A stretch of DNA of 64,000 nucleotides from an uncultured Acidobacteriota bacterium (GTDB lineage Bacteria > Acidobacteriota > Thermoanaerobaculia > Multivoradales > SZUA-115). The position numbers and the translations under genes were made by a program. The stretch lies in assembly GCA_963805975.1 (NCBI GenBank), contig CAWDVR010000002.1, forward strand, positions 288,001-352,000, given 5' to 3'. How positions within the stretch are numbered: position 1 is the first letter of the stretch; every line of letters begins with the position of its first letter. The notes beneath the pieces are model-generated. The model was not told where the DNA came from. It saw only the letters and a program-made list of their open reading frames with translations, and made no database searches. Below, in pieces: positions 1 through 19,313 of the stretch.

Positions 1-605
1 TGTTCGAGGCGCCGCGGGTCTTTGACCCCCGGCGCGCTCTCCACCCCCGAGCAGACGTCCACGCCGTCGGCGCCGCTCTCCTCGAGCGCCCGCCGTGCCG
101 TGCCGGGCCGGATGCCGCCGGCCACGAAGAAAGGCCGGTCGAGAGCGAGGCCGGCGAGCGCAGCATAGCCCCAGGGCTCGCCGCTGCCTCCGTAGAGATC
201 GGGGCGCAGCACGTCGAAGAGAAAACCCCAGGCCGCGGGAAAGGCGCCGGCGTCGAAACCGCCGAGATCGCCGCGCGTGCGCACCACTTTCAGCGCCCGC
301 CCGCCGAACGCCGACACCTCCTCTGGCCTCTCGTCGCCGTGGAGCTGGAGAAGATCGAGCCCGACCGCGGCGCCGGTGGCCTCTACCTCCGCCGCCGGCC
401 GGTTGACGAACACACCCACCACCTGCACCCGGCCGCGCACCGCCTCGGCGATCGCGCGCGCCCGTTCGACGGAGACGAAGCGCGGGCTGGGCGGGTGGAA
501 GTTGAGGCCGATGAAGCCTGCGCCCAGGGCCACGGCGCGCTCCGCGTCCTCGACCCGTGTGACGCCGCAGACCTTGACCAGCGGGCGAGCCCGCGGCGCG
601 CTCAC
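1..605 (-). CDS. trpF: Phosphoribosylanthranilate isomerase (3' end off window)
   Basis: Not in the ORF track. Hand translation from GTG at 605 (GTGA overlap with trpC stop): VKVCGVT..GFIGLNFHPPSPRFV..VGVFVN..QLHGDE..YGGSG..FVAGGI..GVDVCSGVESAPGVKD. Open to the window edge. Confidence 0.93.
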   Translation of the reverse strand, partial: MSAPRARPLVKVCGVTRVEDAERAVALGAGFIGLNFHPPSPRFVSVERARAIAEAVRGRVQVVGVFVNRPAAEVEATGAAVGLDLLQLHGDERPEEVSAFGGRALKVVRTRGDLGGFDAGAFPAAWGFLFDVLRPDLYGGSGEPWGYAALAGLALDRPFFVAGGIRPGTARRALEESGADGVDVCSGVESAPGVKDPRRLE

Positions 606-1396
606 CGCGCCAGCTCCACCAGCTTGGCCGCCGGGTCGGGCGCCGTGAGCAGCGACTCGCCGATCAGGAAGGCATCGAAGCCGGCCGCCGCCAGCCGTTC
701 GAGGTCGTCGCGGCTCGCGAGGCCGCTCTCCGCCACCCGGAGCGCGCCCGCGGGGAGGAGCGGAGCCAGGCGCTCGGCGGTCGCGAGCGACACCTCGAAG
801 GTCCGCAGGTCGCGGTTGTTGACGCCCAGCAGCTCCCACTCGCGTCCCTCGAGCTTGGGGAGGTCGTCCTCGCCGGAGAGCTCGATCAAGGGCACCAGCC
901 CGAGCTGCCGCGCCATGCCGGCGTAGCCCGCGAGCTCGCAGGCGTCGTAGAGCGCGGCGATCAACAGCACGGCGTCGGCCGCGGCGCGCTTCGCCCACCA
1001 GAGCTGCAAGGGATGGACGATGAAGTCCTTGGCGATCGCCGGCAGGCCCGAGGCCTGGCGGCAGCGGGCCAGGAGGTCGTAGCTGCCGAAGAAGAAATCC
1101 GGCTCGACGACCACCGACAGCGCGGCGGCGCCGTTGGCGGCGTAGGTCCGCGCCTGCTCCTCGGGGTCGAAGCGGCCGGCGAGCGAACCGAGGCGTGGCG
1201 AGCCCATCTTGACCTCGGCGATCACCGCCCGGCCGCGGTGCGCGGAGAGCGCCGCCAGGAACGCGTTGTCGGCGGCGGTGCGCGGCTGGCCCGGGGCGAG
1301 CACGGGCAGCTCGCCGGTCTGCTCGGCGGCCTCGGCCAGCCGCAGGCGGCGCTCTCCGGTGATGCGCCGCAGGATGTCCGGTAGCTCGTTGCTCAT
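602..1396 (-). CDS. trpC: Indole-3-glycerol phosphate synthase
   Basis: VIAEVKMGSP, GAAALSVVVEPDFFFGS, KDFI, GVNNRDLRTF, VAESG, FLIGESL motifs; trp operon context. Confidence 0.95.
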   Translation of the reverse strand: MSNELPDILRRITGERRLRLAEAAEQTGELPVLAPGQPRTAADNAFLAALSAHRGRAVIAEVKMGSPRLGSLAGRFDPEEQARTYAANGAAALSVVVEPDFFFGSYDLLARCRQASGLPAIAKDFIVHPLQLWWAKRAAADAVLLIAALYDACELAGYAGMARQLGLVPLIELSGEDDLPKLEGREWELLGVNNRDLRTFEVSLATAERLAPLLPAGALRVAESGLASRDDLERLAAAGFDAFLIGESLLTAPDPAAKLVELAR

Positions 1397-1411
1397 CTCG
1401 TCGTCTCAATC

Positions 1412-1489
1412 GAGCGGCCGGCACAGGTCCGACCGCTACGGCCGGAAACTGCCCTCCGGACGTAGCGGCCGGGCTTGTATCGGCCGCTC
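1412..1489. repeat. Inverted pair of GTAG-type REP-like palindromes (REPIN-like) between trpD and trpC
   Basis: GTAGCGGCCGGGCTTGTATCGGCCG on + from 1462 and GTAGCGGTCGGACCTGTGCCGGCCG on - from 1439; the pair forms one long imperfect hairpin. Confidence 0.6.
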
Positions 1490-1505
1490 CAACCGCCCGT
1501 CTCCG

Positions 1506-2528
1506 TCACGTCGATCCGAACCTCGCCAACGCCTCCAGCTTCGCACCTGCCGCGCCCGAGCCCAGGGCCTCGCGCGCCCGCTCGAGGCCGGCAGCCAGGC
1601 TCTCCGCCACGCCGGCCACGTAGAGCGCCGCCGCGGCGTTGAGCGCCACCACGTCTGCCAGCGGGCTGCTCTCGCCGCCGAGGAGCCTGCGCATCAGCAC
1701 CGCGTTGTGCTCGGGATCGCCGCCGGAGAGCTCCTCCGGCCTGGCCAGTGCCACCCCAAAGTCCCTGGGATCGAGATCATAAACCTCGACTCTGCCTCGC
1801 CGCACCTCGGCCACCCGCGTGCGGCCGGTGGTGGTGATCTCGTCCAGCCCGTCGGAGCCATGCACCACCAGCGCGTGGTCGCTGCCGAGGTCGGCCAGCA
1901 CCCCGGCCAGGAGCTCTACCAGCTCGGGAGCGTAGACGCCCAGGAGCTGCCGGCGCGCGCCCGCCGGGTTGGTGAGCGGCCCCAACACGTTGAACAGGGT
2001 GCGCACGCCGAGCGCGCGGCGCACCGGCATGGCGTGCTTCATGGCCGGGTGCAGGCGCGACGCAAAAAGGAAGGCGATGCCGACCTCGTCGAGAGCGCGG
2101 GCCGCCAGCTCGGGCTCGACCTCGATCGGCACGCCGAGGGCGGCGAGCACGTCGGCGCTGCCCGACCGGCTCGACACCGAGCGGTTGCCGTGCTTGGCCA
2201 CGGTGGCGCCGGCCGCCGCCGCCACGAACGCCGCGGCGGTCGAGATGTTGAAGCTGCCGCGGCCGTCGCCGCCCGTGCCGCAGGTGTCGATCAGGTCCGT
2301 GCGGCGGTGCGGGATCGCCGTCACTCGGGCGCGCATGGCGGCGGCGGCGCCGGTGATCTCGTCGCGCGCCTCGCCTTTCATGCGCAGTGCGACGAGGAGC
2401 GCCGCCTGCACCGGCCCCGGCACGTCGCCGTCCATCAGCCGGCCGAAGAGCGCTTCGGTCTCCGCGCGGGTGAGGTCCTCGCGGGCCATGAGCCGGGAGA
2501 GGGCTTCGCGGTCAGAGAGCATGATCAA
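1506..2528 (-). CDS. trpD: Anthranilate phosphoribosyltransferase (start 2528 or 2522)
   Basis: DTCGTGGDG..FNIST, VAKHGNRSVSSRSGSADVL, RTLFNVLGPLTNP, HGSDGLDE. Confidence 0.96.
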   Translation of the reverse strand: MIMLSDREALSRLMAREDLTRAETEALFGRLMDGDVPGPVQAALLVALRMKGEARDEITGAAAAMRARVTAIPHRRTDLIDTCGTGGDGRGSFNISTAAAFVAAAAGATVAKHGNRSVSSRSGSADVLAALGVPIEVEPELAARALDEVGIAFLFASRLHPAMKHAMPVRRALGVRTLFNVLGPLTNPAGARRQLLGVYAPELVELLAGVLADLGSDHALVVHGSDGLDEITTTGRTRVAEVRRGRVEVYDLDPRDFGVALARPEELSGGDPEHNAVLMRRLLGGESSPLADVVALNAAAALYVAGVAESLAAGLERAREALGSGAAGAKLEALARFGST

Positions 2529-2530
2529 GA

Positions 2531-2696
2531 GCCCCTCACCCTAGCCCTCTCCCCGCGAGCGGGGAGAGGGGGCCGGAAGGAGAGCGGCCATTTCCCGCAG
2601 GAAGGGAAGAGGGACCGAAATGGCAGAAGTGGCCTCCCCGGACGGCTGGTGGCGCCCTCGCCCCGCGGCAGCGGGGAGAGGGTCGGGGTGAGGGGC
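2531..2696. repeat. Inverted pair of CCCTCACCC(N)CCCTCTCCC..GGGAGAGGG palindromic repeats between trpG and trpD
   Basis: cccctcaccctagccctctccccgcgagcggggagaggg at 2532-2570 and an inverted copy ccctcgccccgcggcagcggggagagggtcggggtgagggg at 2655-2695. Confidence 0.75.
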
Positions 2697-2709
2697 GGTG
2701 AGCCGCGGC

Positions 2710-3288
2710 TCATCCGGCTCTCTCCCCGCACAAGGCCAGGAAGTTCCCCAGCAGCCTCCTCCCTTCCCCCGTCAGCACGGACTCGGGGTGGAACTGCACG
2801 CCCCAGTAAGGCAGCTCCCGGTGGCGCATGGACATCAGCGCGCCGTCGTCGCTCCAGGCCAGGGGCTCGAGCTCCGGCGGGAGCGTGGGCTCTTTGACCT
2901 CCAGGCTGTGGTAGCGGCCGGCCGCGAACGGGTCGGGCAGGCCGGCCAGGATCCCCAGACCGCCATGGCGCACCGGCGAGGCCTTGCCGTGCATCAGGCG
3001 CTCGGCACGGCCCACCTCGGCGCCGAAGGCGAGGCCCAGCGCCTGGTGCCCGAGGCAGACGCCGAGCACCGGCACCTGCGGCCGCGCGGCGAAGAGGTCC
3101 AGGCAGACGCCCGCGTCCTCCGGCCGGCCCGGCCCGGGGGACAGCACCAGGCCCGCGGGCCCGAGGCCCAGCATCTCCTCGGCGCTCGCGGCATCGTTGC
3201 GCAGCACGGTCACCGGCGCGCCCTGCTCGGCCAGCAATTGGACGAGGTTGTAGGTGAAGGAGTCGTAGTTGTCGACCACCAGGATCAT
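2710..3288 (-). CDS. trpG: Anthranilate synthase component II (glutamine amidotransferase)
   Basis: DNYDSFTYNL, SPGPG, GVCLGHQ, RYHSL, GVQFHPES. Confidence 0.95.
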   Translation of the reverse strand: MILVVDNYDSFTYNLVQLLAEQGAPVTVLRNDAASAEEMLGLGPAGLVLSPGPGRPEDAGVCLDLFAARPQVPVLGVCLGHQALGLAFGAEVGRAERLMHGKASPVRHGGLGILAGLPDPFAAGRYHSLEVKEPTLPPELEPLAWSDDGALMSMRHRELPYWGVQFHPESVLTGEGRRLLGNFLALCGERAG

Positions 3289-4784
3289 CCGTCCTCCCTC
3301 CCCGCCGCTTCCAGCCGTTCCGCCAGGCTCACGGCGGCCAGCAGCGCCGCCGCCTTGTTCTCGGTCTCCTTCTCCTCGGCCGCGGGATCGGAGTCGGCCA
3401 CGATGCCGGCGCCGGCCGTCACCGAGGTCTCGCCGTCCTTCACCACCAGTGTGCGGATGGTGATGCAGGTGTCGAGGTCGCCGGAGAACGAGAGGTAGCC
3501 CACGGCGCCGGCGTACGGCCCGCGCGCCTCGGGCTCCAGCGTGTCGATGATCTCCACGGCCCGGATCTTCGGCGCTCCGGACACCGTGCCCGCCGGGAAA
3601 CAGGCGAGCAACGTGCCGAGCGCGCCCGCGGCGCCGGCAGGCCGGCCGGCGTCGAGCTCCGCCTCGACGCTCGACACCAGGTGCATCACGTGGCTGTAGC
3701 GCTCGATCTCGAGGAACGAGGGCACCGTAACCGAGCCCGGCCGCGCCACCCGGCCGAGGTCGTTCCTCCCGAGGTCCACCAGCATCACGTGCTCGGCGCG
3801 CTCCTTGGGGTCGGCGAGCAGGCTCTCGGCGAGCAGCCGGTCACCCTCGGCGTCGGCGCCCCGCGGCCGGGTGCCGGCGATCGGCCGGGTCTCGATCCGG
3901 CGCCCGGTCTTCCTCACCAGCATCTCGGGGGAGGCGCCCACCAGGGCCGCATCCGGCGTCTCGAGCAGCACCATGTAGGGCGACGGGTTGATCAGCCGCA
4001 CGGCGCGGTAGAGGGCCAGCGGCTCCGGCTGACGCGCCGGAGGGAGGGGCCGCGCCAGGCGGAAGCGACGCGCCAGCACCACCTGGAAGATGTCGCCGGC
4101 CGCGATGTGCTCCCGGGCCTGCTCGACCGCGGCGCGGAACTCGGCGCCGGAGAGGCTGGGCTCGACTCCCGCCGGAGGCCGGAAGGTGAGCTCCGGCAGG
4201 GCCACGCCACCGCCCTGCCCGGCCGCGGTCAGCGCCTTCTCGAGGCGCGCCAGCTCGCGCTCGGCATCGGCGCCCGTGGACTCCCCTTCCACTTCGTTGG
4301 CGATCGCCAGTACCCGCTGGTGGGCGTGATCGAAGACCACCACGGTGTCGAAGCGGCCGAGGAGCGCCACCGGCAGGCCGAACGGATCGGGCGGCCGGCC
4401 CGGCAGCCGCTCGATCAGGCGGATCAAATCGAAGCCGAAGAAGCCCACCCAGCCGCCGGTGAAAGGGATTGGCCCGGCGTCCGCGGCCACGCCCGCGACG
4501 ACCTGTTCCAGCGCCGCGAGCGGCGCGCCCGGCAACCGCTCGACCTTGCCGTCGCGCTCGATCTCGAGACGATCGGCCCACAGCCGCAGCACCTCCCGCG
4601 GCCCGGCGCCGAGGATCGAGTAGCGCGACACCTGCTCGCCGCCCGACACGCTCTCGAACAGGAAGCGGAACGGCGAGATCGCCGCCAGCCGCCGGTAGAC
4701 GGCGAGCGGCGACAGCGTGTCGGCCAGGAACTCGCGTACGTGCGGTACGGCGCGGCGCGGCGCCGTGCTCTCGGTGAGTGCCAT
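3285..4784 (-). CDS. trpE: Anthranilate synthase component I (ATG at 4784; track start 4787)
   Basis: FLFES, GDIFQVVL, NPSPYM, GASPE, PIAGTRPRG, EHVMLVDLGRND, FPAGTVSGAPK, GAGIVADS. Confidence 0.96.
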   Translation of the reverse strand: MALTESTAPRRAVPHVREFLADTLSPLAVYRRLAAISPFRFLFESVSGGEQVSRYSILGAGPREVLRLWADRLEIERDGKVERLPGAPLAALEQVVAGVAADAGPIPFTGGWVGFFGFDLIRLIERLPGRPPDPFGLPVALLGRFDTVVVFDHAHQRVLAIANEVEGESTGADAERELARLEKALTAAGQGGGVALPELTFRPPAGVEPSLSGAEFRAAVEQAREHIAAGDIFQVVLARRFRLARPLPPARQPEPLALYRAVRLINPSPYMVLLETPDAALVGASPEMLVRKTGRRIETRPIAGTRPRGADAEGDRLLAESLLADPKERAEHVMLVDLGRNDLGRVARPGSVTVPSFLEIERYSHVMHLVSSVEAELDAGRPAGAAGALGTLLACFPAGTVSGAPKIRAVEIIDTLEPEARGPYAGAVGYLSFSGDLDTCITIRTLVVKDGETSVTAGAGIVADSDPAAEEKETENKAAALLAAVSLAERLEAAGREDG

Positions 4785-5452
4785 CAATCGCTCCCTCGCC
4801 TGGCCATCTCGCGCTCCCGGTGCCGGCGCACCAGCTCCTCCGCCACCGCCCGCGCCGGTACGCCGCGCGCCGCGAGCAGCGCCAGGAGGTGGAACAGCAG
4901 GTCCGCGGCCTCCGAGGTCAGACGCTCCTCGCTCTCGGGGCCTGCGGGCGCCAGCGCCGCGATCACCGTCTCGACCGCCTCCTCTCCCACCTTCTGTGCA
5001 ACGCGGGCGAGTCCGGACGACAACAGCCGTGCCGTGTAGCTCTCCGCGGGGTCCGCGCTCCCGCGCTCGGCGATCACCTTCTCGAGCCAGCCCAGCTCGA
5101 TCGCCGCCGCGTTGGGCTCGAAGCAGGAGCGCGAGCCGCGGTGGCAGGTGGGGCCGCGCGGGTGGGCACGCACCAGCAGCGCGTCCCCGTCGCAGTCCGC
5201 CAGCACCTCGGCCACCTCCAGCACGTGGCCGGAGGTCTCACCCTTCCTCCACGGGGCCTTTCGCGAGCGGCTCCAGAAGTGCGCCTCGCCGGTCGAGAGC
5301 GTCTTCGCCACCGCCTCGCGGTCGGCGTAGGCCAGCATCAGCACCGCGCCCGTGGCGGCGTCCTGCACCACCACCGGCACCAGGCCGTTCCCGTCGAAGC
5401 GGAGAGCCGCCGGGTCGATCGTCACTGGATCGATCGTCATTGGGTCGTTCAT
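4784..5452 (-). CDS. hisIE: Bifunctional phosphoribosyl-AMP cyclohydrolase / phosphoribosyl-ATP pyrophosphatase
   Basis: C-terminal part of ORF 4784..6028: FWSRSR..KGETSG..DCDGDALL..GPTCHRG..SCF, then SYTARL..KVGEEAVE..EAADLLFH. ATG at 5452 overlaps hisF stop (TGATG). Confidence 0.94.
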   Translation of the reverse strand: MNDPMTIDPVTIDPAALRFDGNGLVPVVVQDAATGAVLMLAYADREAVAKTLSTGEAHFWSRSRKAPWRKGETSGHVLEVAEVLADCDGDALLVRAHPRGPTCHRGSRSCFEPNAAAIELGWLEKVIAERGSADPAESYTARLLSSGLARVAQKVGEEAVETVIAALAPAGPESEERLTSEAADLLFHLLALLAARGVPARAVAEELVRRHREREMARRGSD

Positions 5453-6234
5453 CAGGGCGCCTCCGTGAGCCGCATCGGGAAGCCGCGGCCCGCGAGGTCG
5501 CGCTTCACCTCGGCGACCGTCCAGTCGCCCTGGTGGAAGATCGAGGCGGCGAGCACGGCCGCGGCCCCGGCCACGAGCGCCGCCGCCAGGTGCCGGACCG
5601 TGCCGGCGCCGCCCGAGGCGATCACCGGCACGTTCACCGCAGACGAAGCCGCGGCGACCAGCTCGAGGTCGTAGCCCTGGCGCGTGCCGTCGCCGTCGAT
5701 CGAGGTGAGCAGCACCTCGCCGGCGCCGAGCGCGACCGCTTCTTCGATCCAGGCCAGCACCTCGCGGCCGGCCGCGCACCGGCCGCCGTGGGTCACCACC
5801 TCCCACTGTCCCTCGCCTGAGCGCCGGGCGTCCACCGACAGCACCACGCACTGGGCGCCGAAGGTTCCGGCCAGCTCGGCGACCAGCGCCGGCCGCTCCA
5901 CGGCCGCGGTGTTGACCCCGACCTTGTCCGCGCCGGCCAGCAGGAGTGCCCGCGCGTCCGCCACCGAGCGCACGCCGCCGCCGACGGTGAGCGGCACGAA
6001 GACCCGCTCGGCCACCGCTTCCACCCACGCGAGGTCCGTGCCGCGGCGCTCGGGCGCCGCCGTGATGTCGAGGAACACGATCTCGTCCGCGCCCTCCGTG
6101 GCATAGCGGGCCGCGGCGTCCGCCGGATCGCCCTGGTCGCGCAGATCGGCGAAGCGCACGCCCTTGACCACCCGTCCCGCGGCCACGTCCAGGCAGGGGA
6201 TCACTCGGCGCGCGAGAGCGGTCGGGGCCGTCAC
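5452..6234 (-). CDS. hisF: Imidazole glycerol phosphate synthase cyclase subunit
   Basis: [64 protein letters not shown]; GTG at 6234 overlaps hisA stop. Confidence 0.95.
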
Positions 6235-6983
6235 CGCCGTGGCTCCGCGGGAACGACGCCGGCGCCGCAGGCGGCGAGCGCGTCCGCGATGGTGAAGGCC
6301 CGTTCGTAGATCGCCCGCCCCACGACGGCGCCGGCGATCTCCGGGCTGGCGGCGGCGGCTTCGAGGTCGGCCAGCGAGCGCACGCCGCCGGAGAGCAGCG
6401 CGGGCAGATGGGTCGAGTCCGCCACCCGGCGCGCGAGGTCCAGATTGGGTCCCTCGAGCGTGCCGTCGCGGTCGATGTCGGTCACCAGCACCGCTGGGCA
6501 CGGCAGGCCCTTCAGCCGCCGGCAGATCTGGGACAGCGGCTCCGCCACCTCCTCCCGCCAGCCCGCGATGCGCAGCTCGCCGCCCCGGGTGTCGAGCGCG
6601 GGAACCAAGCGGCCGGGGTGCTCGCGCGCCAGCTCGGCGAAGAGCTCGGGCTGGCGCGCCACCATCGAGCCCACCACCACCCGCTCGCAGCCCAGCGCGA
6701 GCGCGGCCTCGACGGTGGCGCGGTCGCGCAGGCCGCCGCCGAGCTGCAGCGCGGCAGCACGCGCGAGCGCCGCGGTCGCGAGCGCGGCCAGCAGCTCGGT
6801 TTGCGGCTCGGCCTCGAACGCGGCGTCGAGGTCCACCACGTGCAGGCGGGTCACACCCGCGGCCAGCAGCTCTTCCAGCCAACCGAGCGGCGAGTCGCCG
6901 TACTCCGTGCGCAGGCTGTCGTCGCCGCGCAGCAGGCGCACGACCTTGCCGGCGCGCAGGTCAATGGCCGGCAGCAGGTCCAT
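6231..6983 (-). CDS. hisA: ProFAR isomerase
   Basis: [45 protein letters not shown]. Confidence 0.94.
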
Positions 6984-7584
6984 GCGCCATCTCCAGGAAA
7001 TTGCCCAGGATCTTCAACCCCAGGCGATCGCTCTTCTCCGGGTGAAACTGCGTGCCCAGCACCCGGCCGCGGCCGGCGACCGCCGGAAAAGCACGGCCGT
7101 GGGTGGCCGAAGCCAGCACCTCGCCCGCCGCCGTGCCCTCGGGCGCGAAGGAGTGAACGAAGTAGACGAAGGCGCCCTCCGGCACGCCGGCGAGGAGCGC
7201 GTGGTCCGCCAGGCCGTGCAGCCGGTTCCAGCCGATGTGGGGCCGCGGGACCGTGGCCGGAAGCGCGGTCACGCGGCCCGCGAGGAGCGCGAGACCGTCC
7301 GTGGAGCCGTGCTCCTCGCTGCCTTCGTAGAGGAGCTGGAAGCCGACGCAGATGCCGAGCAGCCAGGCACCGGCCGCGAGCGCCTCGCGGAGCGCCTGCT
7401 CGAGCGCGCCGCGCAGAACCTCCCGCGGCGTGCGGAAGGCGCCCACACCGGGCAGCAGCAGGCAGCGGCTGGCCGCGACGCGCGCCGGATCGCGGCTCAC
7501 CTCGGCTCGGGCCCCGGCAGCCACCAGGGCGCGCGCGAGGTTGCCCAAGTTGCCCACACCGGCGTCCACGATCAGCGCCTTCAT
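6961..7584 (-). CDS. hisH: Imidazole glycerol phosphate synthase amidotransferase subunit
   Basis: GVGN, LPGVGAF, LGICVGFQ, PHIGWN, YFVHSF, QFHPEKS. Confidence 0.95.
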   Translation of the reverse strand: MKALIVDAGVGNLGNLARALVAAGARAEVSRDPARVAASRCLLLPGVGAFRTPREVLRGALEQALREALAAGAWLLGICVGFQLLYEGSEEHGSTDGLALLAGRVTALPATVPRPHIGWNRLHGLADHALLAGVPEGAFVYFVHSFAPEGTAAGEVLASATHGRAFPAVAGRGRVLGTQFHPEKSDRLGLKILGNFLEMAHGPAAGH

Positions 7585-8219
7585 CGGTCGAGCGTCCCCT
7601 TGGTGCTGGGCACCGCCGCGGCGCCCGGCCGCGGGCTCACGGCCTGCCGCAGCGCCAGGGCCACGGCCTTGAACGCCGCCTCGGACGCGTGGTGCGGGTT
7701 GCGGCCGGCGAGCACGTCGAGGTGCAGGGTGAGCCGCCCGCGGTCGGCGAGCGCGCCGAAGAAGTCCGCCACCAGGGTGAAGGGAAACGCCGCCGTCACC
7801 CAGCTCGCGGCGATGGGGTCCGGCGCGGAGAAGGCGAAGAAGCCGCGGCCCGAGAGGTCCACCACGGCGCGCGCCAGGGCCTCGTCGAGGGGCGCATAGG
7901 CGTGGGCGAAGCGGAAGACGCCGCGCTTCTCGCCGAGCGCCTGGGCGATCGCCTCGCCGAAGGCGATGCCCACGTCCTCCACCGTGTGATGGAGATCGAC
8001 GTGCGTGTCGCCTTCGGCTTCGAGGCGCAGGGCGAGCCCGCCGTGGGTGGCGAGAGCGTCGAGCATGTGGGCGAAGAAGCCATCCGGCACGGCGATTCTG
8101 GGCTCGATGTCTTCAGGCAGCCGGCCATCGAGACCGAGCGTGAGGCGCACCCGGGTCTCGCGCGTCTCGCGCTCGACGGTGGCGACACGGGAGGAATCGG
8201 CTGAGCGCTCCATGGTCAT
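7581..8219 (-). CDS. hisB: Imidazoleglycerol-phosphate dehydratase, monofunctional (start 8219 or 8213)
   Basis: RETRET, FFAHML, GDTHVDLHHTVEDVGI, PLDEAL, DLSGR, NPHH..EAAFKA, PSTKG. Confidence 0.94.
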   Translation of the reverse strand: MTMERSADSSRVATVERETRETRVRLTLGLDGRLPEDIEPRIAVPDGFFAHMLDALATHGGLALRLEAEGDTHVDLHHTVEDVGIAFGEAIAQALGEKRGVFRFAHAYAPLDEALARAVVDLSGRGFFAFSAPDPIAASWVTAAFPFTLVADFFGALADRGRLTLHLDVLAGRNPHHASEAAFKAVALALRQAVSPRPGAAAVPSTKGTLDR

Positions 8220-9297
8220 CCCGCGATCTCGCCGAGCGCCTTGGCCGTCGCCCGTCAGCGCCGCGCCCGAGCCCACCGAGAAGCGCAGGCAGCCGGCGAG
8301 GCCCGTGCCGCCGGACACGTCGCGCACCCGGATGCCGCGCCGCGCGAAGGCCGCCGTAGACCACCGCAGCGCCGCCGCCCGGGCAGCGGGCGAGGAGGAA
8401 GTTCGCCTGCGAGGGAAAGACCGCGAAGCCGCGCGCCTGCGAGCATCGCCTGCCACTGGCCCCGGCGGGCGACGAGCAGCCGCACGCGCTTCCCGAGCCG
8501 CGCCGCCGCGGCCAGGCACTCCTCGCCGGCCACCAGCGCCGCGTGGCCCACGTTGTAGGGCAGCTTCACCTTGATCAGCTCGGCCACCAGCTCCGGCGCC
8601 GTCGAGGAGGTAGCCGAGCCGCAGGCCGGCGAGCGACCAGGCCTTGGAGAAGGTGCGGAAGAGAATCAGGTGCGGGTGGCGGGCGAGGAGCGGCCGGTAG
8701 TCCTCGGTCGAGAACTCGCCGTAGGCGTTGTCGAGCAGCAGCGGCGCCTCGAGCCGCGCCAGCAGCTCCTCCACCTCTCGGACCGGCACCGCCTCGCCCG
8801 TGGGGTTGTTGGGGCTGCGTCAGGAGCACCGGCCGGCGCGGGTCGCGCGCCACCTCGGCGAGAAGCTCCGCCCACGGCAGCCGCAGGTCGGCGCGCGGCC
8901 CCAGGAAGCGCGCCGCGGCGCCGGTGCGCTCGATCATCATGCGGTAGGGCTCGAAGCCGGGGCGCAGCGCCAGCACCTCGGCCCCCGGCCCGGCCACGGC
9001 CTCGAGCGCCACGCCCAGGAGCTCGTTCGAGCCGTTGCCCACCAGGATCCCCGCGGCCGGGTGGCCGTGGTGGCGCGAGAGGGCTTCCCGCAGCGCGTCG
9101 CCGTGGAAGTCCGGGTAGCGCGCGAAGTCCAGCTCCAGCAGGCGCTCGGCGATGCGCCGCTTCACGGCCCGCGGCAGGTCCCACGGCACTTCGTTCTGGT
9201 CGAGCTTGAACCGGCACGGCGCGAGGTCGAGGTGGTAGGCGCGCGCCCGCCGCACTTCCGGCCGCACCAGCTCGGCCACCGAGCGCACCGCGCTCAC
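8216..9297 (-). CDS. hisC: Histidinol-phosphate aminotransferase; broken as sequenced by five +1 insertions (probable sequencing errors)
   Basis: Motifs split over frames: KLDQNE, GNGSNE, (S)[46 protein letters not shown]. Removing 5 bases gives 1077 nt (359 codons). Confidence 0.88.
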
Positions 9298-10596
9298 GCC
9301 AGCCTCCTCGCCGCCGCTGCGGCATGGGCCGGCAGGCCCTCGGCCTGGGCCAGGGCCACCACCGCGGGCGCCAGGCGCGCGGCGCCGGCCGGCGTCGCCC
9401 TCACCACGTGGCTCCGGCGCACGAAGTCCTCGACCCCCAGGGCCGAGGCGAAGCGCGCCGAGCCGCAGGTGGGGAGCACGTGGCTGGGGCCGGCGAGGTA
9501 GTCGCCGAGGACCTCGCCCGCGGCCGCACCCACGAACACCGCACCGACGGAGCGCACCCTGGGCGCGAGCGCCTCCGGCCTCGGCGCCCACGAGCTGCAG
9601 GTGCTCGGGCGCGATCTCCTCGACCAGGGACAGCGCTTCCTCCCAGGACTCGACGAGGAAGGCGCGGCCGAAGGCGGCGAGCGCCGCGCGGGCGGTGTCC
9701 GCCGTGGCAAGCGCGGGGAGCTGCGCTGCGAGCTCCGTCTCTACCGCCCGTGCCAGGCTGCGCGACGGCGTCACCAGCACCGCCGCGGCCAGCGGGTCGT
9801 GCTCGGCCTGGGCCAGGAGGTCGGCGGCCAGGAGCGCAGGGTCGGCCTCCTCGCCGGCCAGGATCACCACCTCGGTGGGCCCGGCGAGGCCGTCGATCGC
9901 CACCTCACCCGCCACGCGACGCTTGGCGGCCGTCACCCAGGCGTTGCCGGGGCCCACGATCTTGTCCACCCGCCGGATGGTCTCGGTGCCGTGGGCGAGC
10001 GCGGCCACGGCGTGGGCACCGCCCATGCCCCAGACCTCGGTGATCCCGAGACGGGCCAGCGCGTAGCGCAGCGCCGGGCTCCCCGCGTACGCGGCGGGCG
10101 GTGTCGCGACAGCGATCTCCGCCACTCCCGCCAGCCGCGCCGGCACCACGGTCATCACCACGGTCGAGGGGTAGGAAGCGCGCCCGCCCGGCACGTAGAC
10201 GCCCACTCGCGCCAGAGGCAGGCGCCGCTCCTCGAGCACCAGGCCGTCCTCCTCCAGCCGGTAGCCGGCAGCGACCTGGGGCCGATGGAAGCGCTCCACC
10301 CGCTCGATGGCCAGCTCGATCGCCTCCGCCAGCGCCGGCGGCACCAGGCGCAGCTCGGCCGCCAGGTCGGGTGGTCCCAGCGCCAGCTCCGCCGCGGTGG
10401 TGGCCACCGAGCCGTCGAAGGACCGTGCCGCGGCGAGGAGGGCCTTGTCCCCCCGGCGGCGCACGTCCTCCACCAGGCGCTCCGCCTGGCGGGTGACCCG
10501 CCGGTCGAGCACCCGGCGCCCGCGGCCGGCGAGCCGCGCGAGAGCGCGCCGGCCGGCCGCGGACCCGGCGCGGACCACCGGGAGCAGGCGGCTCAC
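9294..10596 (-). CDS. hisD: Histidinol dehydrogenase; one +1 frameshift near 9575
   Basis: [49 protein letters not shown]; then in the next frame [21 protein letters not shown] at 10596 overlaps hisG stop. Confidence 0.93.
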
Positions 10597-11219
10597 GCCG
10601 CCACCCCCGCCGCTTCGAGGCGATCGAAGAGCGCGTTGAGCTCGCGCCGGTGGCGCTGGTACGAGGCCCGGTTGAGCACCACCACCGGCGCCACCTCGGC
10701 CACGGCCTCGATCTCGACCAGGCCGTTCTCGGCCAGGGTGCGGCCGGTCTGCACGATGTCGAGCGCGATCTCGGCCAGGTCGAGGAGCGGCGCCAGCTCG
10801 AGCGACCCGGAGAGCGGCACGATCTCCACCGACCAGGGCCAGGCCGAGGCCAGGCGGGCGGCGAAGCGCGGGTACTTGGTGGCGAGCCGCACCTGCGCCC
10901 CGGGCGCCGGGCGGCTGCCGGGCCGGCCGATCAGCGACAGGCGGCAGCGGCCGGCGGCGAGCGCCAGCGGTGCCAGCAGGTCGCCGTCCACCTCGGCCAG
11001 CACGTCGCTCCCCACCAGCCCGAGATCGGCGATGCCGTGCTCCACGTAGAGCGGCAGGTCCCAATCCTTGAGCAGCAGCAGCTCGAGCCCCAGCTCCGGC
11101 CGCGGGACGAGAAGCTGGCGGCCGTTGCCGGCCGCGCTCCGCAGATCGACGCCGGCGGCGCCGAACGCGACGAGGGCCGCTTCGAGGTTTCGGCCCTTGG
11201 GCAGCGCCAGCCGGATCAC
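10593..11219 (-). CDS. hisG: ATP phosphoribosyltransferase, short form
   Basis: LALPKGR, DLPLYVEHGIADLGLVGSDVL, ATKYP, GSLELAP..DIVQTGRTL.ENGL; 208 aa; paired with hisZ. Confidence 0.95.
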   Translation of the reverse strand: MIRLALPKGRNLEAALVAFGAAGVDLRSAAGNGRQLLVPRPELGLELLLLKDWDLPLYVEHGIADLGLVGSDVLAEVDGDLLAPLALAAGRCRLSLIGRPGSRPAPGAQVRLATKYPRFAARLASAWPWSVEIVPLSGSLELAPLLDLAEIALDIVQTGRTLAENGLVEIEAVAEVAPVVVLNRASYQRHRRELNALFDRLEAAGVAA

Positions 11220-12196
11220 GCCGCCTCCCTGCCGTCCGAGGCGGCCAGCCGGTCGAGGCTGAGTGAGAACCCCACCGCCGGCAGTACCGCTCCGAGGCGC
11301 GAGAACAGCGAGTCGTAGCGGCCTCCGGCCCCCACCGGCTGGGCGTCGCCGGCCACGTAGGCGCGGAAGACCAGGCCGTCGTAGTAGCCCTCGGCGTCGG
11401 GCGCCGCGTCACCCGCCGCGAGCCGCGGATCGAGCGTGAAGCGCGCGAACTCTGCGAGATCGACACTCAGCTCGATCTGCCCTTGCTCCTGGCCGAGCAC
11501 GGCGGCGAGCTGCTGTAACTGCCGCAGCCGCTCTCCCGCCCGCGGGCCGAGGTCGGCGGGGTCGGCCGGCAGGCCGTCCTCCACCACCTGGGCGAGGGCC
11601 CGGGCCGCGCGCCGGGCGGGGCCGCGCTCGCGCCTCGCCACGGCCCGCGCCAGCTCCCCGGCAGCCTCGCCGCCCGCGGCGAGCAGCAGCTCGTCGAGCG
11701 CACCGGCAAAGCCGAGCACCACCTGCGGCCGGGGCGCACCGCTCCGCGCCAGCACTGACACGAAGAGGCGCAGCAGTTCCTCGTCCGCGGCGGGGCCCGC
11801 GGCGCCCAGCAGCTCCGCACCGAGCTGGTACAGCTCGCGCGTTCGCCCCGAGCGGTCCTCCTGCTGGCGGACGACGTCGCCCCGGTAGAAGAGCCGCAGC
11901 GGCAGCGGAAGGTGCGCCAGGCGGGGTGCCAGGAGCCGCGCCAGCATGGGCGTGAAGTCCGCGCGCAGGGCCAGCACCTCGCCGGCGCGGTCGACGAAGC
12001 GGTAGAGCCGCCCGCGCGCCGCGGCCCCCAGCAGCGGCTCGTAGGGCTCGAAGTAGTCGAGGATCGGCAGCAGGACCTCGCCGTAGCCGGCCGCTTCGAG
12101 CACGGCCGCGAGCCGGCCTTCCAGCCGGCGCCGCTCCGCGGCGGCCTCGAAGAAGAGGGCGGCCACGCCCGCGGGCAGCGCCGCCGAGACTCTCAT
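11216..12196 (-). CDS. hisZ: ATP phosphoribosyltransferase regulatory subunit
   Basis: HisRS-like: LALRADFT, RELYQLGAEL, YYDGLVF, GGRYDSL..AVGFS; adjacent to short hisG. Confidence 0.9.
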   Translation of the reverse strand: MRVSAALPAGVAALFFEAAAERRRLEGRLAAVLEAAGYGEVLLPILDYFEPYEPLLGAAARGRLYRFVDRAGEVLALRADFTPMLARLLAPRLAHLPLPLRLFYRGDVVRQQEDRSGRTRELYQLGAELLGAAGPAADEELLRLFVSVLARSGAPRPQVVLGFAGALDELLLAAGGEAAGELARAVARRERGPARRAARALAQVVEDGLPADPADLGPRAGERLRQLQQLAAVLGQEQGQIELSVDLAEFARFTLDPRLAAGDAAPDAEGYYDGLVFRAYVAGDAQPVGAGGRYDSLFSRLGAVLPAVGFSLSLDRLAASDGREAA

Positions 12197-13680
12197 CCCG
12201 CCTCCAGGCCGACGGCGCGCCGGCCGACCTCGAGGGGCAGCTCGGCCCCGGTCAGAATGCGAAACTGAGGGATGGCCTGGGCGAGGAGCACCTCCAGGCC
12301 GTCCACCACCACCAGGCCCCGGGCCCTGGCTTCGCGCGCCAGGAGCGTCGGCTGCCGGCCGTACACCAGGTCCACGATCACCGCGCCCGGCGGGAGGGTG
12401 GCCGCCGACACCGGCCCCGGCTCGCCGTCCTCGCGGCCGAGCGAGGTGGCGTTGACCAGCAGGCCGTAGGCGGAGGCGTCCAGCTCCGCGAGGGGGACGA
12501 AGGGAAGGCCGAGCTCATGGGCCACGCTCAGGCCGCGCTCCCGGTCCCGGTTCGAGACCGTGACCCTGGCGCCGGCGTTGGCGAGGCCCACGGCCGCCGC
12601 CCGGCCCGCGCCCCCGGCGCCGATCACCACCGCCCTGAGGCCCGCCACCGGCACGCCCCTGGCGGCGAGCGGCGCCACCACGCCCTCGGGGTCGGTGTTC
12701 TCCGCCTCCCACAGCTCGCCCCGCCGCAGCAGCGTGTTGGCGGCGCCCACGTGCTCCACCAGTGGGCTCGCCGCCGCGGCCACGGCGAGCGCCGCCTCTT
12801 TGAACGGCGCGGTGACGGCCAGGCCGACGAGAGGCAGCCCCAAGTTGTCGAGCCCCACTCCCTCGACGACCTCGAGCCAGAAGTCGCCGAACGACTCGGC
12901 GTGGAACGGCAGGAAGAGAGCGGGGATCCCCAGCGCGCGGTAGGCGGCGTTGTGCAGGCGCGGCGAGAGCGAGCGCGCCACCGGGTTGCCCACGATGCCG
13001 TACAGCCTCTCGACCGCCGGCAGCTCCGGCAGCCCGTAGTCGAGGACGAGCTGGGCCATCGTGGGCTGGCCGGGGGACGCGGGGACGTTGCCGGCAGAGC
13101 CGTAGACCACGGGCGCTCCCAGCCGCGGCGCGATGAGCCGCGTCCAGACCCCTGCGGGCCCCGAGGCGAAGGCGGCCACGTCGCGCCGGCCGAGCTGGGC
13201 CAGAAAGAGCAGCGGCGCCAGCTCGTCGCCCGGCTGCGTCGCCGCCGGCACCAGCTTGTAGAGCGCGGCCGGCACACGCGCGATCTCGGCGAAGCGGCTC
13301 TCGAGCCCGGCGAGGTCCGTGGCCGGGCCGTGCCAGGAGACCAGCCGGCGCTCGGGCGGGACCGCGGCCAGGATCTCGGGCGTCAGGTCGCGCGCGCCCT
13401 CGAGGTCGATGCGGTCATAGTCGGCCGCCGCGGCAGTGAGGAGCCGCTGCCGACGGCGGGCCGGCGCGCTCTCCGAGGCACCGCCCTCGGCCGAGCTGCG
13501 AAGCGTGTAGAGGAGCTTCTTGCCGGAGGCCCGGCGCAGGGCCGCGGCGTCGAGGTCGCCGGTCAGGTCGGCCCGGACCTCCAGCCATTCGACCGCGGCC
13601 GGGATCGCAGCCAAATCCTGGGCCGACGGCGGCGCCGTCAGGCTGGCGATCAATGAAGCTCGAGGGGCGTTCTGCTCCAA
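12193..13680 (-). CDS. aroDE: Bifunctional type I 3-dehydroquinate dehydratase / shikimate dehydrogenase (AroD-AroE fusion)
   Basis: N-half: LEVRAD, YTLRS..EGG, VSWH, YKLV, SPGQ. C-half: SLSP..HN, VTAPFK, GAANT, NTD, GAGGAGRA, NATSLG, DLVY, DGL..L..QA. TTG start 7 nt after GGGAGGAG. Confidence 0.9.
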   Translation of the reverse strand: MEQNAPRASLIASLTAPPSAQDLAAIPAAVEWLEVRADLTGDLDAAALRRASGKKLLYTLRSSAEGGASESAPARRRQRLLTAAAADYDRIDLEGARDLTPEILAAVPPERRLVSWHGPATDLAGLESRFAEIARVPAALYKLVPAATQPGDELAPLLFLAQLGRRDVAAFASGPAGVWTRLIAPRLGAPVVYGSAGNVPASPGQPTMAQLVLDYGLPELPAVERLYGIVGNPVARSLSPRLHNAAYRALGIPALFLPFHAESFGDFWLEVVEGVGLDNLGLPLVGLAVTAPFKEAALAVAAAASPLVEHVGAANTLLRRGELWEAENTDPEGVVAPLAARGVPVAGLRAVVIGAGGAGRAAAVGLANAGARVTVSNRDRERGLSVAHELGLPFVPLAELDASAYGLLVNATSLGREDGEPGPVSAATLPPGAVIVDLVYGRQPTLLAREARARGLVVVDGLEVLLAQAIPQFRILTGAELPLEVGRRAVGLEAG

Positions 13681-13708
13681 ACGAAAACTCCTCCCGGCCG
13701 GGAGGAGT
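13679..13708 (-). terminator. Attenuator-type terminator hairpin that also contains the aroDE Shine-Dalgarno
   Basis: Perfect palindrome ACTCCTCCCGGCCGGGAGGAGT (13687-13708) running into TTTTCGTTT on the - strand; its 3' arm GGGAGGAG is the SD of the TTG at 13680. Confidence 0.8.
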
Positions 13709-13770
13709 CGATTCGCGAACCTGCGAGCTCGATCATCCCGGTCCGTTGCGACCGGGACGCGAGCCCCGGC

Positions 13771-13854
13771 CTAGACCTTGGGATGCGCGTGCCAATGCCA
13801 GCCCCGAGCAACGAGCTCGGCAGCGGCGCAGGCGGGCAGGCGCAGGATGGTCAT
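13771..13854 (-). CDS. Putative Trp/His leader (attenuator) peptide MTILRLPACAAAELVARGWHWHAHPKV
   Basis: ATG at 13854 to TAG at 13771; TGG CAT TGG CAC GCG CAT cluster; lies between a promoter and the terminator upstream of a his+trp operon. Confidence 0.8.
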   Translation of the reverse strand: MTILRLPACAAAELVARGWHWHAHPKV

Positions 13855-13863
13855 CTGCCAGGG

Positions 13864-13893
13864 AGTAGAGCAAAGGGGGTGGAGAGGTGTCAA
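13864..13893 (-). promoter_or_regulatory. Sigma70-type promoter for leader/aro-his-trp operon
   Basis: Consensus -35 TTGACA (13893-13888), 18-bp spacer, TGn-TCTACT extended -10-like element ending 9 nt before the leader ATG. Confidence 0.55.
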
Positions 13894-13985
13894 GGGTGAG
13901 CGACTGATCCGTCATCCAGTCAGGGAAGCCGCGCCTCCTCCTCGTAAACGGGGAGAGGAACAGGCGGTCGACACCGGCATGGAAA

Positions 13986-14405
13986 TCAGGCCGGCAGCAG
14001 CAGGTTCTCGAAGGGCTTCCGCTGCTTCCAGCGGTATGTGCGGAAGTCCCGCTGGTCGGTCGAGAGGATGCGGCCGTGACCCAGTTCCTCGGCAAGGAGC
14101 ACCAGCGAGGCGTCGGCCAGATCCATGGGCAGGTCGTAGTACTTGTCCATCAGGCCGATCAAGGGCAGGATGTGCTCCCGGTTCAGAGAAAAGACCTCGA
14201 AAGCTCCCTGGGCGTAGCCCGCGAGGAACGCCTTCTCGCTCGACAGACTCACGCGGTGCGCTAAGAGCTGACAGGTCTCGGTAACCACCGGCCAAGTAGT
14301 GATCAGCGGCTCGTCGTTACCATCGAGCCAGAGCTTCGCCGCCAAGTGATGTTTGTCGCGCTGGCTCGACGCTGCGATCCAGAACCCTGTATCAGCGATG
14401 ACCAT
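13986..14405 (-). CDS. PIN-domain VapC-type toxin
   Basis: IADTGFW, DKHH, TTWPVVTE, MDLADASLV, ILSTD.RDF..YR. Confidence 0.9.
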   Translation of the reverse strand: MVIADTGFWIAASSQRDKHHLAAKLWLDGNDEPLITTWPVVTETCQLLAHRVSLSSEKAFLAGYAQGAFEVFSLNREHILPLIGLMDKYYDLPMDLADASLVLLAEELGHGRILSTDQRDFRTYRWKQRKPFENLLLPA

Positions 14406-18211: not shown

Positions 18212-18715
18212 ATGCTCCGCCGAAGCTGCGCTCTGCCGGCTCTCCTCTTGCTGCTCGCCTCGTGCGCGAGCAGTCCGGCGGCCCTGCACGGCGCCCGCGG
18301 CATGACTGGCGCGCCGGCCATAGGCGGCTCGCGCTGCTCCCGCTTCGAGCTCTGCGACTTCGACGACCACCCTTGCGATCCCGCGAGCGGCTGCACCTGC
18401 GCCTACATGACCCATACCTGCGAAACCCGGTTCAACTGGTGCACCAACGACAGCCAGTGCCGGGACGCCCTGGACGACGGCGGCGCACGCTGCATCGGCA
18501 ACGCCTGCTGGGGCACCGGCGTCGACTGCCAGAGCCTGCAATGCAAGAACGGCCACGGCTGCGCCGGCGACCAGGACTGCCAGGCAGGCTGGACGTGCTC
18601 GGCCGGCAACGGTGTCTGCAAGCCGGCGGGCGGAGAGAACCCGGAGCCGGGCCGCGCTCAGCTCTCGCCCGCCGCCAGCACCAATGCCCCCACGCGCTCG
18701 ATGCTCGCGAAATGA
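18212..18715 (+). CDS. Cys-rich putative lipoprotein
   Basis: GGAGG SD, MLRR..LLLLLASC lipobox, 16 further Cys with CxxDxxC..C..G.C units; 3' end overlaps the convergent PIN gene. Confidence 0.6.
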   Translation: MLRRSCALPALLLLLASCASSPAALHGARGMTGAPAIGGSRCSRFELCDFDDHPCDPASGCTCAYMTHTCETRFNWCTNDSQCRDALDDGGARCIGNACWGTGVDCQSLQCKNGHGCAGDQDCQAGWTCSAGNGVCKPAGGENPEPGRAQLSPAASTNAPTRSMLAK

Positions 18716-19065
18716 GCGTCGTAGGTGAGCACGGTGGCGCCGTGGCGGGCGGCGGTGGCGGCGATCCAGACGTCGTTGACCGGAAGCGGCCGGCCGATCT
18801 TGCGCAGGCCAACCATGATCTCCGCGAACACCTGCGCGACCGAGGCGTCGACAGGTAGCTCCTCCACCGCCGGATGGGCGAGGAGCTCGCGCAGCTCGGC
18901 GAGGTTCTGATCCCGCCGGCCGCCCAACAGAAAGCCGATCCATAGCTCGCCGATCACCACCGAGGGAACTCCGATCCACTCGGCGCCATCCAACAAATCA
19001 ACTACCGCGGCCTCACCGCGCCGGAAGTGGCTGTAGGCCGATGTGTCGAGGCAGAAACGGCTCAA
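18658..19065 (-). CDS. PIN-domain VapC/FitB-type toxin
   Basis: CLDTSAYS, VVIGEL..GF, GRPLPVNDVWIAATA, VLTYDAHF; TTG at 19065 overlaps the antitoxin stop. Confidence 0.9.
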   Translation of the reverse strand: MSRFCLDTSAYSHFRRGEAAVVDLLDGAEWIGVPSVVIGELWIGFLLGGRRDQNLAELRELLAHPAVEELPVDASVAQVFAEIMVGLRKIGRPLPVNDVWIAATAARHGATVLTYDAHFASIERVGALVLAAGES

Positions 19066-19313
19066 CGCCAGAGCTCCTCGTCGATCTGCTCGGTCACGGC
19101 TACCGCTTTTTCGAAGAGCCGAAGATCCTCGGCGGACCACCCGCCGGCGAGGCGCCGCAGGCCGTTGCTGCGGCCAGATCGCGCCTCGACACCCAGGCCC
19201 TGGCTCAGGATGTCCAGCACCGTCTGGTTGAGAGACGTGCCGCGACGCTTCTTTTCGGCTTCGAGCGCTCGGGCCACCGAGTGCGGGACTTTGCGGATCG
19301 TCAAATGCTCCAT
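19062..19313 (-). CDS. FitA-like RHH antitoxin
   Basis: LTIRKVP..V..AL..E..RRGTSLNQ; LAGGWS; IDEELW. Confidence 0.85.
   Translation of the reverse strand: MEHLTIRKVPHSVARALEAEKKRRGTSLNQTVLDILSQGLGVEARSGRSNGLRRLAGGWSAEDLRLFEKAVAVTEQIDEELWR

Follow-up and report, generated by a model that had tools for sequence, protein, structure and literature searches.

The subject of this report is the regulatory region at the head of a merged aro-his-trp operon in an uncultured bacterium of the order Multivoradales (Acidobacteriota, class Thermoanaerobaculia). It lies on a stretch of 64,000 nucleotides (nt; assembly GCA_963805975.1, contig CAWDVR010000002.1, positions 288,001 to 352,000) that was analysed as a whole and is called the window here. 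The genome is designated G000, and for its promoter, leader, switch and operon we give window positions on the minus strand. An original prediction, made from the letters of the DNA, had proposed at this place a leader peptide whose Trp and His codons jointly control the operon. We find that this Trp and His leader-peptide attenuator is real and class-wide, and that it probably senses both amino acids.

The region opens with a -35 hexamer TTGACA (13888-13893), the predicted operon promoter, followed by a -10-like element (13862-13869) that can be read as TACTCC (13867-13862) or as TG-n-TCTACT. As a motif this promoter, part of the original prediction, holds at 13893-13888, and TTGAC stands at the equivalent place upstream of most homologous leaders; the strict sigma-70 promoter scan returned 0 sites and left it uncalled because the -10 element is TACTCC or the overlapping TCTACT. 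Downstream lies an open reading frame (ORF) of 27 codons (13771-13854), which reads directly from 13854 to 13771 as MTILRLPACAAAELVARGWHWHAHPKV* and whose sole Trp and His codons are interleaved, as had been claimed, in the cluster W19 H20 W21 H22 (A23) H24 (13783-13800), a cluster conserved in homologs. The peptide has no Pfam match. Transcription is predicted from the sequence to start at the leader ATG or 1-3 nt before it, so that the leader would be translated in leaderless fashion; this earlier suggestion fits the present genome and homologs of other orders, in which the ATG lies 35-41 nt from TTGACA, and falls short within the order, where only 13 of 54 leaders have such spacing. As a chance control we took the 15,714 short ORFs with an ATG start in this genome: 30 of them (0.19%) have at least one Trp and at least two His codons within the last 13 codons, and one, which is possibly the leader itself, has at least two Trp with at least three His.

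The RNA that follows divides into five segments, A to E (1 to 5 in the original prediction). Alignment and folding define segment A (13763-13771), which overlaps the stop codon and is the partner of B unless a ribosome at the stop covers it, segment B (13750-13759), the partner of A or C, and segment C (13728-13743), the partner of B or, as antiterminator, of D. Segment D (13698-13712), the terminator 5' arm or the partner of C, is supported by alignment, terminator scan and folding, and segment E (13686-13696), the terminator 3' arm, by alignment and terminator scan; E holds GGAGGAG, a sequence resembling the Shine-Dalgarno (SD) site of aroDE. A U-rich terminator tail (13679-13687; sequence and terminator scan) overlaps both the aroDE start codon, TTG, and the spacer between it and the SD. 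All five segments were found where they had been placed, and two helices proved longer than proposed: A:B reaches 9 base pairs (13771-13763 with 13758-13750) and C:D continues through an inner hairpin. D:E forms a 10-pair stem (13709-13686) that, with its tail, outscores every other terminator-like site on the minus strand of positions 1-14400, a region with 6 such sites against 2.8 expected from shuffles, and the C:D antiterminator, sharing the 5' arm D, is mutually exclusive with it. The 96-nt switch as a whole folds with z=-5.0 relative to 200 shuffles. Rfam gave only two chance-level matches in the window (E about 3) and no leader or T-box match at gathering score in 12 homologous loci; upstream of one of the surveyed loci two matches to Acido-Lenti-1 RNA (RF01687) were seen in inverted orientation (L002, 3301-3346 and 3452-3497).

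The first gene behind the switch is aroDE, a fusion of 3-dehydroquinate dehydratase and shikimate dehydrogenase (12193-13680; NCBIfam NF006802 and TIGR00507, below the curated cut-offs). It is followed by hisZ, hisG, hisD, hisC, hisB, hisH, hisA, hisF and hisIE (4784-12196, by NCBIfam) and by trpE, trpG, trpD, trpC and trpF (1-4787), the first four of these identified by NCBIfam and trpF by sequence and position. Just beyond the window lie trpB and trpA (G000:C2 285819-287980), likewise named from sequence and position. The merged operon of the original prediction is thus confirmed as a run of 17 aroDE-his-trp genes whose gaps do not exceed about 190 nt. Compared with an intact relative, hisD and hisC contain four frame changes on the minus strand (9576, about 8810, about 8600 and about 8437) that are most likely assembly errors arising from sequencing indels. 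Tryptophan and histidine are made by separate pathways whose only shared inputs are phosphoribosyl pyrophosphate and glutamine. No repressor of the TrpR/HisR family was found in this genome, which is 96% complete, and hence attenuation may dominate the transcriptional regulation of the operon. Two PIN-domain genes (PF01850) on the minus strand, one just 5' of the leader promoter (13986-14405) and the other at 18658-19140, probably belong to toxin-antitoxin modules.

To follow the element across the class we searched with aroDE in 201 genomes (158 matched) and across the order with hisG in 121 genomes (79 matched), and fetched 80 long regions comprising 69 hisG loci and 11 aroDE loci, among which the merged gene order recurs. 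Genomes, loci and families are given our own handles (G, L and f numbers) where they must be told apart. A profile recovered the leader ORF and the switch in 64 of 81 loci, the window included, a recovery that is partly circular because the profile was built from 56 leaders of the surveyed set. The 17 unrecovered loci comprise six with hisZ first at a contig end, one cut inside the leader (G235), one with a Trp-only leader recognized by hand (G161), and nine aroDE loci that have neither his genes nor a leader. The element was found in more than 100 genomes overall. In 52 of 54 leaders the ATG nearest downstream of the promoter shares the frame of the Trp/His ORF, where about a third would be expected by chance; the count omits 10 of the 64 leaders, in which the promoter pattern is unmatched. 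A motif scan of GTDB gave at least 120 matches, of which 80 were listed; it used the sequence of this order, so absence elsewhere cannot be read from it. Twenty-seven of the 80 fit the profile strongly, all beside aroDE or his genes and 26 with at least four Trp/His codons; their titles read Thermoanaerobaculia, Acidobacteriota, Holophagae/Holophagales, Ca. Multivoradales and uncultured bacterium, and several share leader peptides with surveyed genomes and are not independent. The other 53, mostly from other phyla, are chance matches, with at most two Trp/His codons and no aro or his gene near. The notion of a chance ORF in GC-rich intergenic DNA beside an ordinary terminator could appeal to the silent promoter scan and to the readiness with which DNA of 70% GC folds; it is already refuted by conservation in more than 100 genomes, by the in-frame ATG and by the covariation described below, and the 53 matches that fail the profile lack the Trp/His cluster and the aro/his neighborhood alike.

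The element is missing or altered in several lineages. In family f15 all 14 loci lack a leader ahead of aroDE, and none stands in the short sequences preceding the his genes of G174 and G070; in L258-L260 of this family a recurring CTCCTCCTTC..GGCTCC..GGGAGCC..T-rich motif lies 5' of a stand-alone aroDE that has no Trp/His leader, and this is probably an upstream terminator or another element. In one f3 genome (G125; L102 and L011) the leader ORF and segments A-C are gone and a D:E-like hairpin is left between promoter and aroDE, and in other f3 genomes the leader is missing altogether. In G077 (L095 and L019) an insertion has apparently shifted the promoter and ATG end of the leader about 190 nt upstream, giving a much longer ORF. 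Genus g7 (L096-L099, L021, L025) carries tandem repeats of about 24 nt, variable in number, at the aroDE 5' end after the terminator. In L320 the Trp/His leader of the family has nearby matches resembling hisA and hisIE, not aroDE or hisZ, which suggests an internal deletion of the operon.

Apart from their Trp and His codons the leader peptides have little in common, being free in length (about 11 to 40 residues) and in N-terminal sequence. His is encoded by 114 CAT and 107 CAC codons over the 64 leaders. Those of this order end in a Trp-then-His cluster, with a recurrent W-x-G-x-H-H-H-like pattern. This pattern, together with the trans role reported for peTrpL of Sinorhizobium in the available portion of PMC7298713, would be the ground for regulation by the nascent peptide itself, be it TnaC-like stalling with a free amino acid, metal binding or action in trans, in place of tRNA charging. 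We regard this as very unlikely, given that nothing is conserved outside the Trp/His residues of these variable, Pfam-negative peptides, that the order of the Trp and His clusters is reversed in many leaders of family f18, and that pure poly-His or poly-Trp versions sit on the same RNA switch.

These pure versions belong to a wider correspondence between the codons of the leader and the genes behind it, seen when genomes were classed by the genes after the leader (automatic leader calls having been corrected by hand in G062, G161, G032, G164, G246 and G186). 1) In merged operons both Trp and His codons are present in 64 of 64 leaders, at least two His codons in 63, so that the conservation expected of orthologous leaders in the original prediction was found throughout. 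2) All eight his-only operons have His-only leaders: G020, G203 and G221, where the his operon is followed by unrelated genes and trp genes lie elsewhere, lack Trp among their last 13 codons; the same is true of G197, whose hisIE-trp genes follow unrelated genes on another contig; and four f12 genomes, likewise with trp genes elsewhere, have pure His runs (4/4). 3) Among 40 genomes with trp-only operons, 25 have a leader, with Trp in every case and with no His codon in 17, one in three and two or more in five; the 15 without a leader are all of family f3, three of them having weak trp matches only. Close relatives and single genomes repeat the picture: in genus g44 the merged G076 and G120 have 3-4 His codons and the trp-only G036 none, and in G007 the his operon has a His-only leader and aroDE-trp one with Trp only, the two sharing their layout. 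Of seven stretches chosen to cover f12 aroDE-trp leaders, two contained a Trp-only leader, two had none and three fell off the operon start. An aroDE tree of 113 leaders left out those without aroDE (G020, G203, G221, G197, f12 and other hisZ-first loci) and therefore covers loss of His, not of Trp; with his-remnant operons counted as his-less, independent pairs gave 6.2 changes in the same direction, 0 opposite and 3.9 unchanged of 10 (p 0.03). Trp loss amounts to at least four or five separate events, counted by family and breakpoint and not from the tree.

In eight f18 loci (L125, L126, L239, L242-L244, L249, L251) only hisD, with short gaps, stands between aroDE and trpE; their leaders are partly without His codons, and hisG was not found in G082 and G198. 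Tyr codons occur in Trp leaders before aroDE-trp in genus g91 (L194, L196, L200, L217, L219) and family f20 (L130, L236, L159), for instance in CWWSYAQPYV and RWYWYWSDTR; they may be a one-change decay of His codons or a gained Tyr sensing for the shikimate step.

The alternative pairings of the original prediction, B:C with D:E and A:B with C:D, both show compensatory changes in an alignment of 64 leaders. The terminating conformation (B:C + D:E) is paired in 91.5% of cells, compared with 42-63% in slid controls, and 11 of its 18 pairs have changed on both sides, a count reached in 0 of 500 shuffles, a test that sequence relatedness inflates here and below; the D:E stem contributes 8 of 10. 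The antiterminating conformation (A:B + C:D) is paired in 92.6% of cells (slid controls 38-65%), with 16 cells changed on both sides (0 of 500 shuffles), and C:D alone is paired in 93.4%, with two of nine pairs doubly changed. Families f12, f14, f17, f18 and f20 have different segment sequences in the same layout, A starting at the stop codon, with A, C and E as G-rich near-repeats and B and D as their complements; on these comparisons we hold that a layout kept with other sequences in five families is stronger evidence than the shuffle tests. A three-segment version is present in the trp leader of G017 (L396, f12), where A and B are absent, C comes directly after the stop and the leader is Trp-only; its polarity would be the same.

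The full-length leader folds into the terminator for every ribosome position and cannot discriminate between them, and therefore prefixes were folded instead, running from 13 nt past the ribosomal A-site up to the end of D, with equilibrium energies. Segment A starts only at the stop codon, 7-13 codons after the first Trp codon, and a ribosome stalled at Trp, with its 13-nt footprint, thus leaves A free. In prefixes of this order C:D formed in 42 of 60 cases with the ribosome at the first Trp codon, in 46 of 64 at the first His, in 42 of 64 at the last His and in 20 of 64 at the stop; the counts for B:C were 18/60, 18/64, 20/64 and 49/64, respectively. In the five families with other sequences stalled prefixes sequester D in 50 of 51 cases, versus 10 of 51 at the stop (G051 being too short to score), with means of 0.71 stalled versus 0.36 at the stop, compared with 0.55 and 0.50 in shuffled controls. 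In the present genome the fold of lowest energy is A:B + C:D for all five Trp and His stalls (-40.1 to -41.4 kcal/mol); once the ribosome is at the stop it is B:C, and D is left free. Folding under ribosome-footprint constraints, which had been put forward as a check, thus moves the structures between stall and stop in the predicted sense, by a margin that in this genome is small. Untranslated leaders fold into C:D in 27 of 54, B:C in 18 and A paired upstream in 13. A conserved sixth segment, a 5' protector, was considered and is not supported, with A pairing upstream in only those 13 of 54.

From these comparisons of sequence and predicted structure we consider it highly probable that the region is an attenuator that senses both charged tRNA-Trp and charged tRNA-His, with transcriptional output, for one merged aroDE-his-trp operon. 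A ribosome finishing the leader would sit on the stop codon and cover A, so that B:C forms and D is free for E; D:E would then end transcription at the U-tract and, on read-through, hide the SD of aroDE. With a ribosome halted 4-9 codons further upstream, at a Trp or His codon, A would be free to pair with B, after which the C:D antiterminator would allow all 17 genes to be transcribed. The output would be that of an OR gate, a shortage of either Trp or His inducing both pathways.

Several observations weigh against this reading. 1) Codons and genes do not correspond everywhere: five trp-only leaders (G045, G242, G250, G261, G272) keep at least two His codons, and G021 has no Trp codons though trpE and trpG remain in its operon, G241 and G278, with the same operon layout, keeping theirs; moreover, the strict independent-pair test for His loss gave 4.3 changes in the same direction, 0 opposite and 2.7 unchanged of 7 (p 0.125). 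2) Besides the relatedness that inflates the shuffle tests, the antiterminating conformation has fewer doubly changed pairs, 5 of 16, a number reached in 20 of 500 shuffles. 3) Even when the ribosome has reached the stop, the equilibrium fold still contains C:D in the 20 of 64 prefixes mentioned above. In this genome the best B:C fold has -39.8 kcal/mol, leaving an antiterminating margin of only 0.3-1.6 kcal/mol, and intermediate prefixes favour an extended B:C hairpin; with the terminator fold of the full-length leader, this means that the switch here must rely on folding kinetics. 4) The terminator tail has at most three U in 12 of 64 homologs.

The first group of these points bears on whether only one amino acid is effectively sensed, more likely His, whose codons are nearest to A, the other codons being kept for another reason or lagging behind operon change. 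The persistence of His in 5 of 25 trp-only leaders, the non-significant strict pair test and the single Trp codon of many merged-operon leaders would suit this explanation, which we nevertheless think improbable: all 64 merged and all 25 trp-only leaders retain Trp, which is absent from 8 of 8 his-only leaders with different operon breakpoints, and simulated Trp and His stalls lead to the same structural result.

The last point concerns the output. With the same sensor, regulation could be mainly translational, D:E hiding the SD of the first gene and the genes downstream being silenced by polarity through Rho, not by intrinsic termination. That arm E serves as the SD of aroDE, as originally claimed, is true of this genome, where its GGAG ends 7 nt before the TTG, and extends to 38 of 64 homologs, in which E has a sequence resembling an SD at 4-13 nt from a downstream in-frame start codon (TTG in most); the tails poor in U point the same way, and attenuators with a ribosome-binding-site sequestrator in place of a terminator are noted in the accessible part of PMC9413887. 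The terminator with its U-tract, likewise present in the window as claimed, recurs with at least five U in 9 nt of the tail in 43 of 64 homologs, this genome included, and the U-tract is kept where hisZ is first and no start is near (G153, G041, G225, G208, G229), which leaves a mainly translational output a small chance, if slightly the best one among the alternatives. The SD-like sequence in 38 of 64 and the U-rich tail in 43 of 64 together make it likely, as far as sequence can indicate, that attenuation acts through both termination and SD occlusion. The only RNA run found was one soil metatranscriptome (word share 0.05), whose contigs gave pieces that are short and mostly under 90% alike, none of which spans the switch.

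The sequence-level features of the attenuator class are present here, namely a short ORF with cognate codons, an intrinsic terminator and an antiterminator sharing the terminator 5' arm, and the basic mechanism would be that of classical leader-peptide attenuation. The thrL leader has Thr and Ile codons and the ilv leader Ile, Leu and Val codons, and the amino acids concerned share one biosynthetic route. The thr and ilvGMEDA operons of E. coli and Salmonella, which have multivalent attenuators, are named in the available text of PMC1183508. As in these, codons for different amino acids are interleaved in one leader ORF before a terminator, and shortage of any of the sensed amino acids is expected to open the operon; unlike in these, Trp and His come from separate pathways joined by operon merger. 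In the four-segment trpL of E. coli the stalled ribosome covers segment 1 and frees 2:3. The present element shares with trpL the Trp codons in a short leader and the competition between antiterminator and intrinsic terminator, but here a stalled ribosome would stand upstream of A without covering it, which only a ribosome at the stop would do, in keeping with the odd number of segments; there is also no match to the Rfam Trp_leader. The hisL leader of Salmonella and E. coli has six segments, and removal of the first would give the A-E layout. With hisL, and with the His leaders of bacilli and clostridia described in the accessible portions of PMC2965389 and PMC9413887, it has in common a run of His codons before operons led by hisZ or hisG and a chain of alternately pairing segments; it departs from hisL in its added Trp codons and in the lack of an Rfam sequence match, and no conserved 5' protector segment was found. 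The leaderless polycysteine short-ORF attenuators of mycobacteria (bioRxiv 10.1101/834739, as far as available) are similar in their short first ORF, rich in the sensed codon and here probably also translated leaderless, and differ in sensing a single amino acid; for mycobacterial cys leaders the accessible part of PMC1262725 reports that no terminator hairpin was found.

More broadly, though with less assurance than for the attenuator itself, we think it probable that these leaders constitute a five-segment family of the Thermoanaerobaculia whose codons have been rewritten as operons split or shrank, with Trp and His in merged operons, His only or Trp only in split ones, and possibly Trp and Tyr before aroDE-trp. 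It would be the first OR-gate attenuator of two unrelated pathways, its stall-upstream polarity would let any codon type be added with no change in the switch, and a single hairpin would act as terminator and SD sequestrator. A full-text literature search, with few subscription journals in scope, found neither a Trp and His leader nor an attenuator from Thermoanaerobaculia. The multivalent attenuators known so far each serve a single branched pathway; here two separate pathways are apparently coupled to one sensor. As stalling would take place before any part of the RNA switch, the element may serve as a modular amino-acid biosensor. For the Acidobacteriota, in which almost no predicted attenuator has an assigned function according to the available part of PMC2965389, the family supplies candidate amino-acid attenuators, and its natural variants, with codons that track operon content, offer a direct view of the co-evolution of an operon and its regulator.

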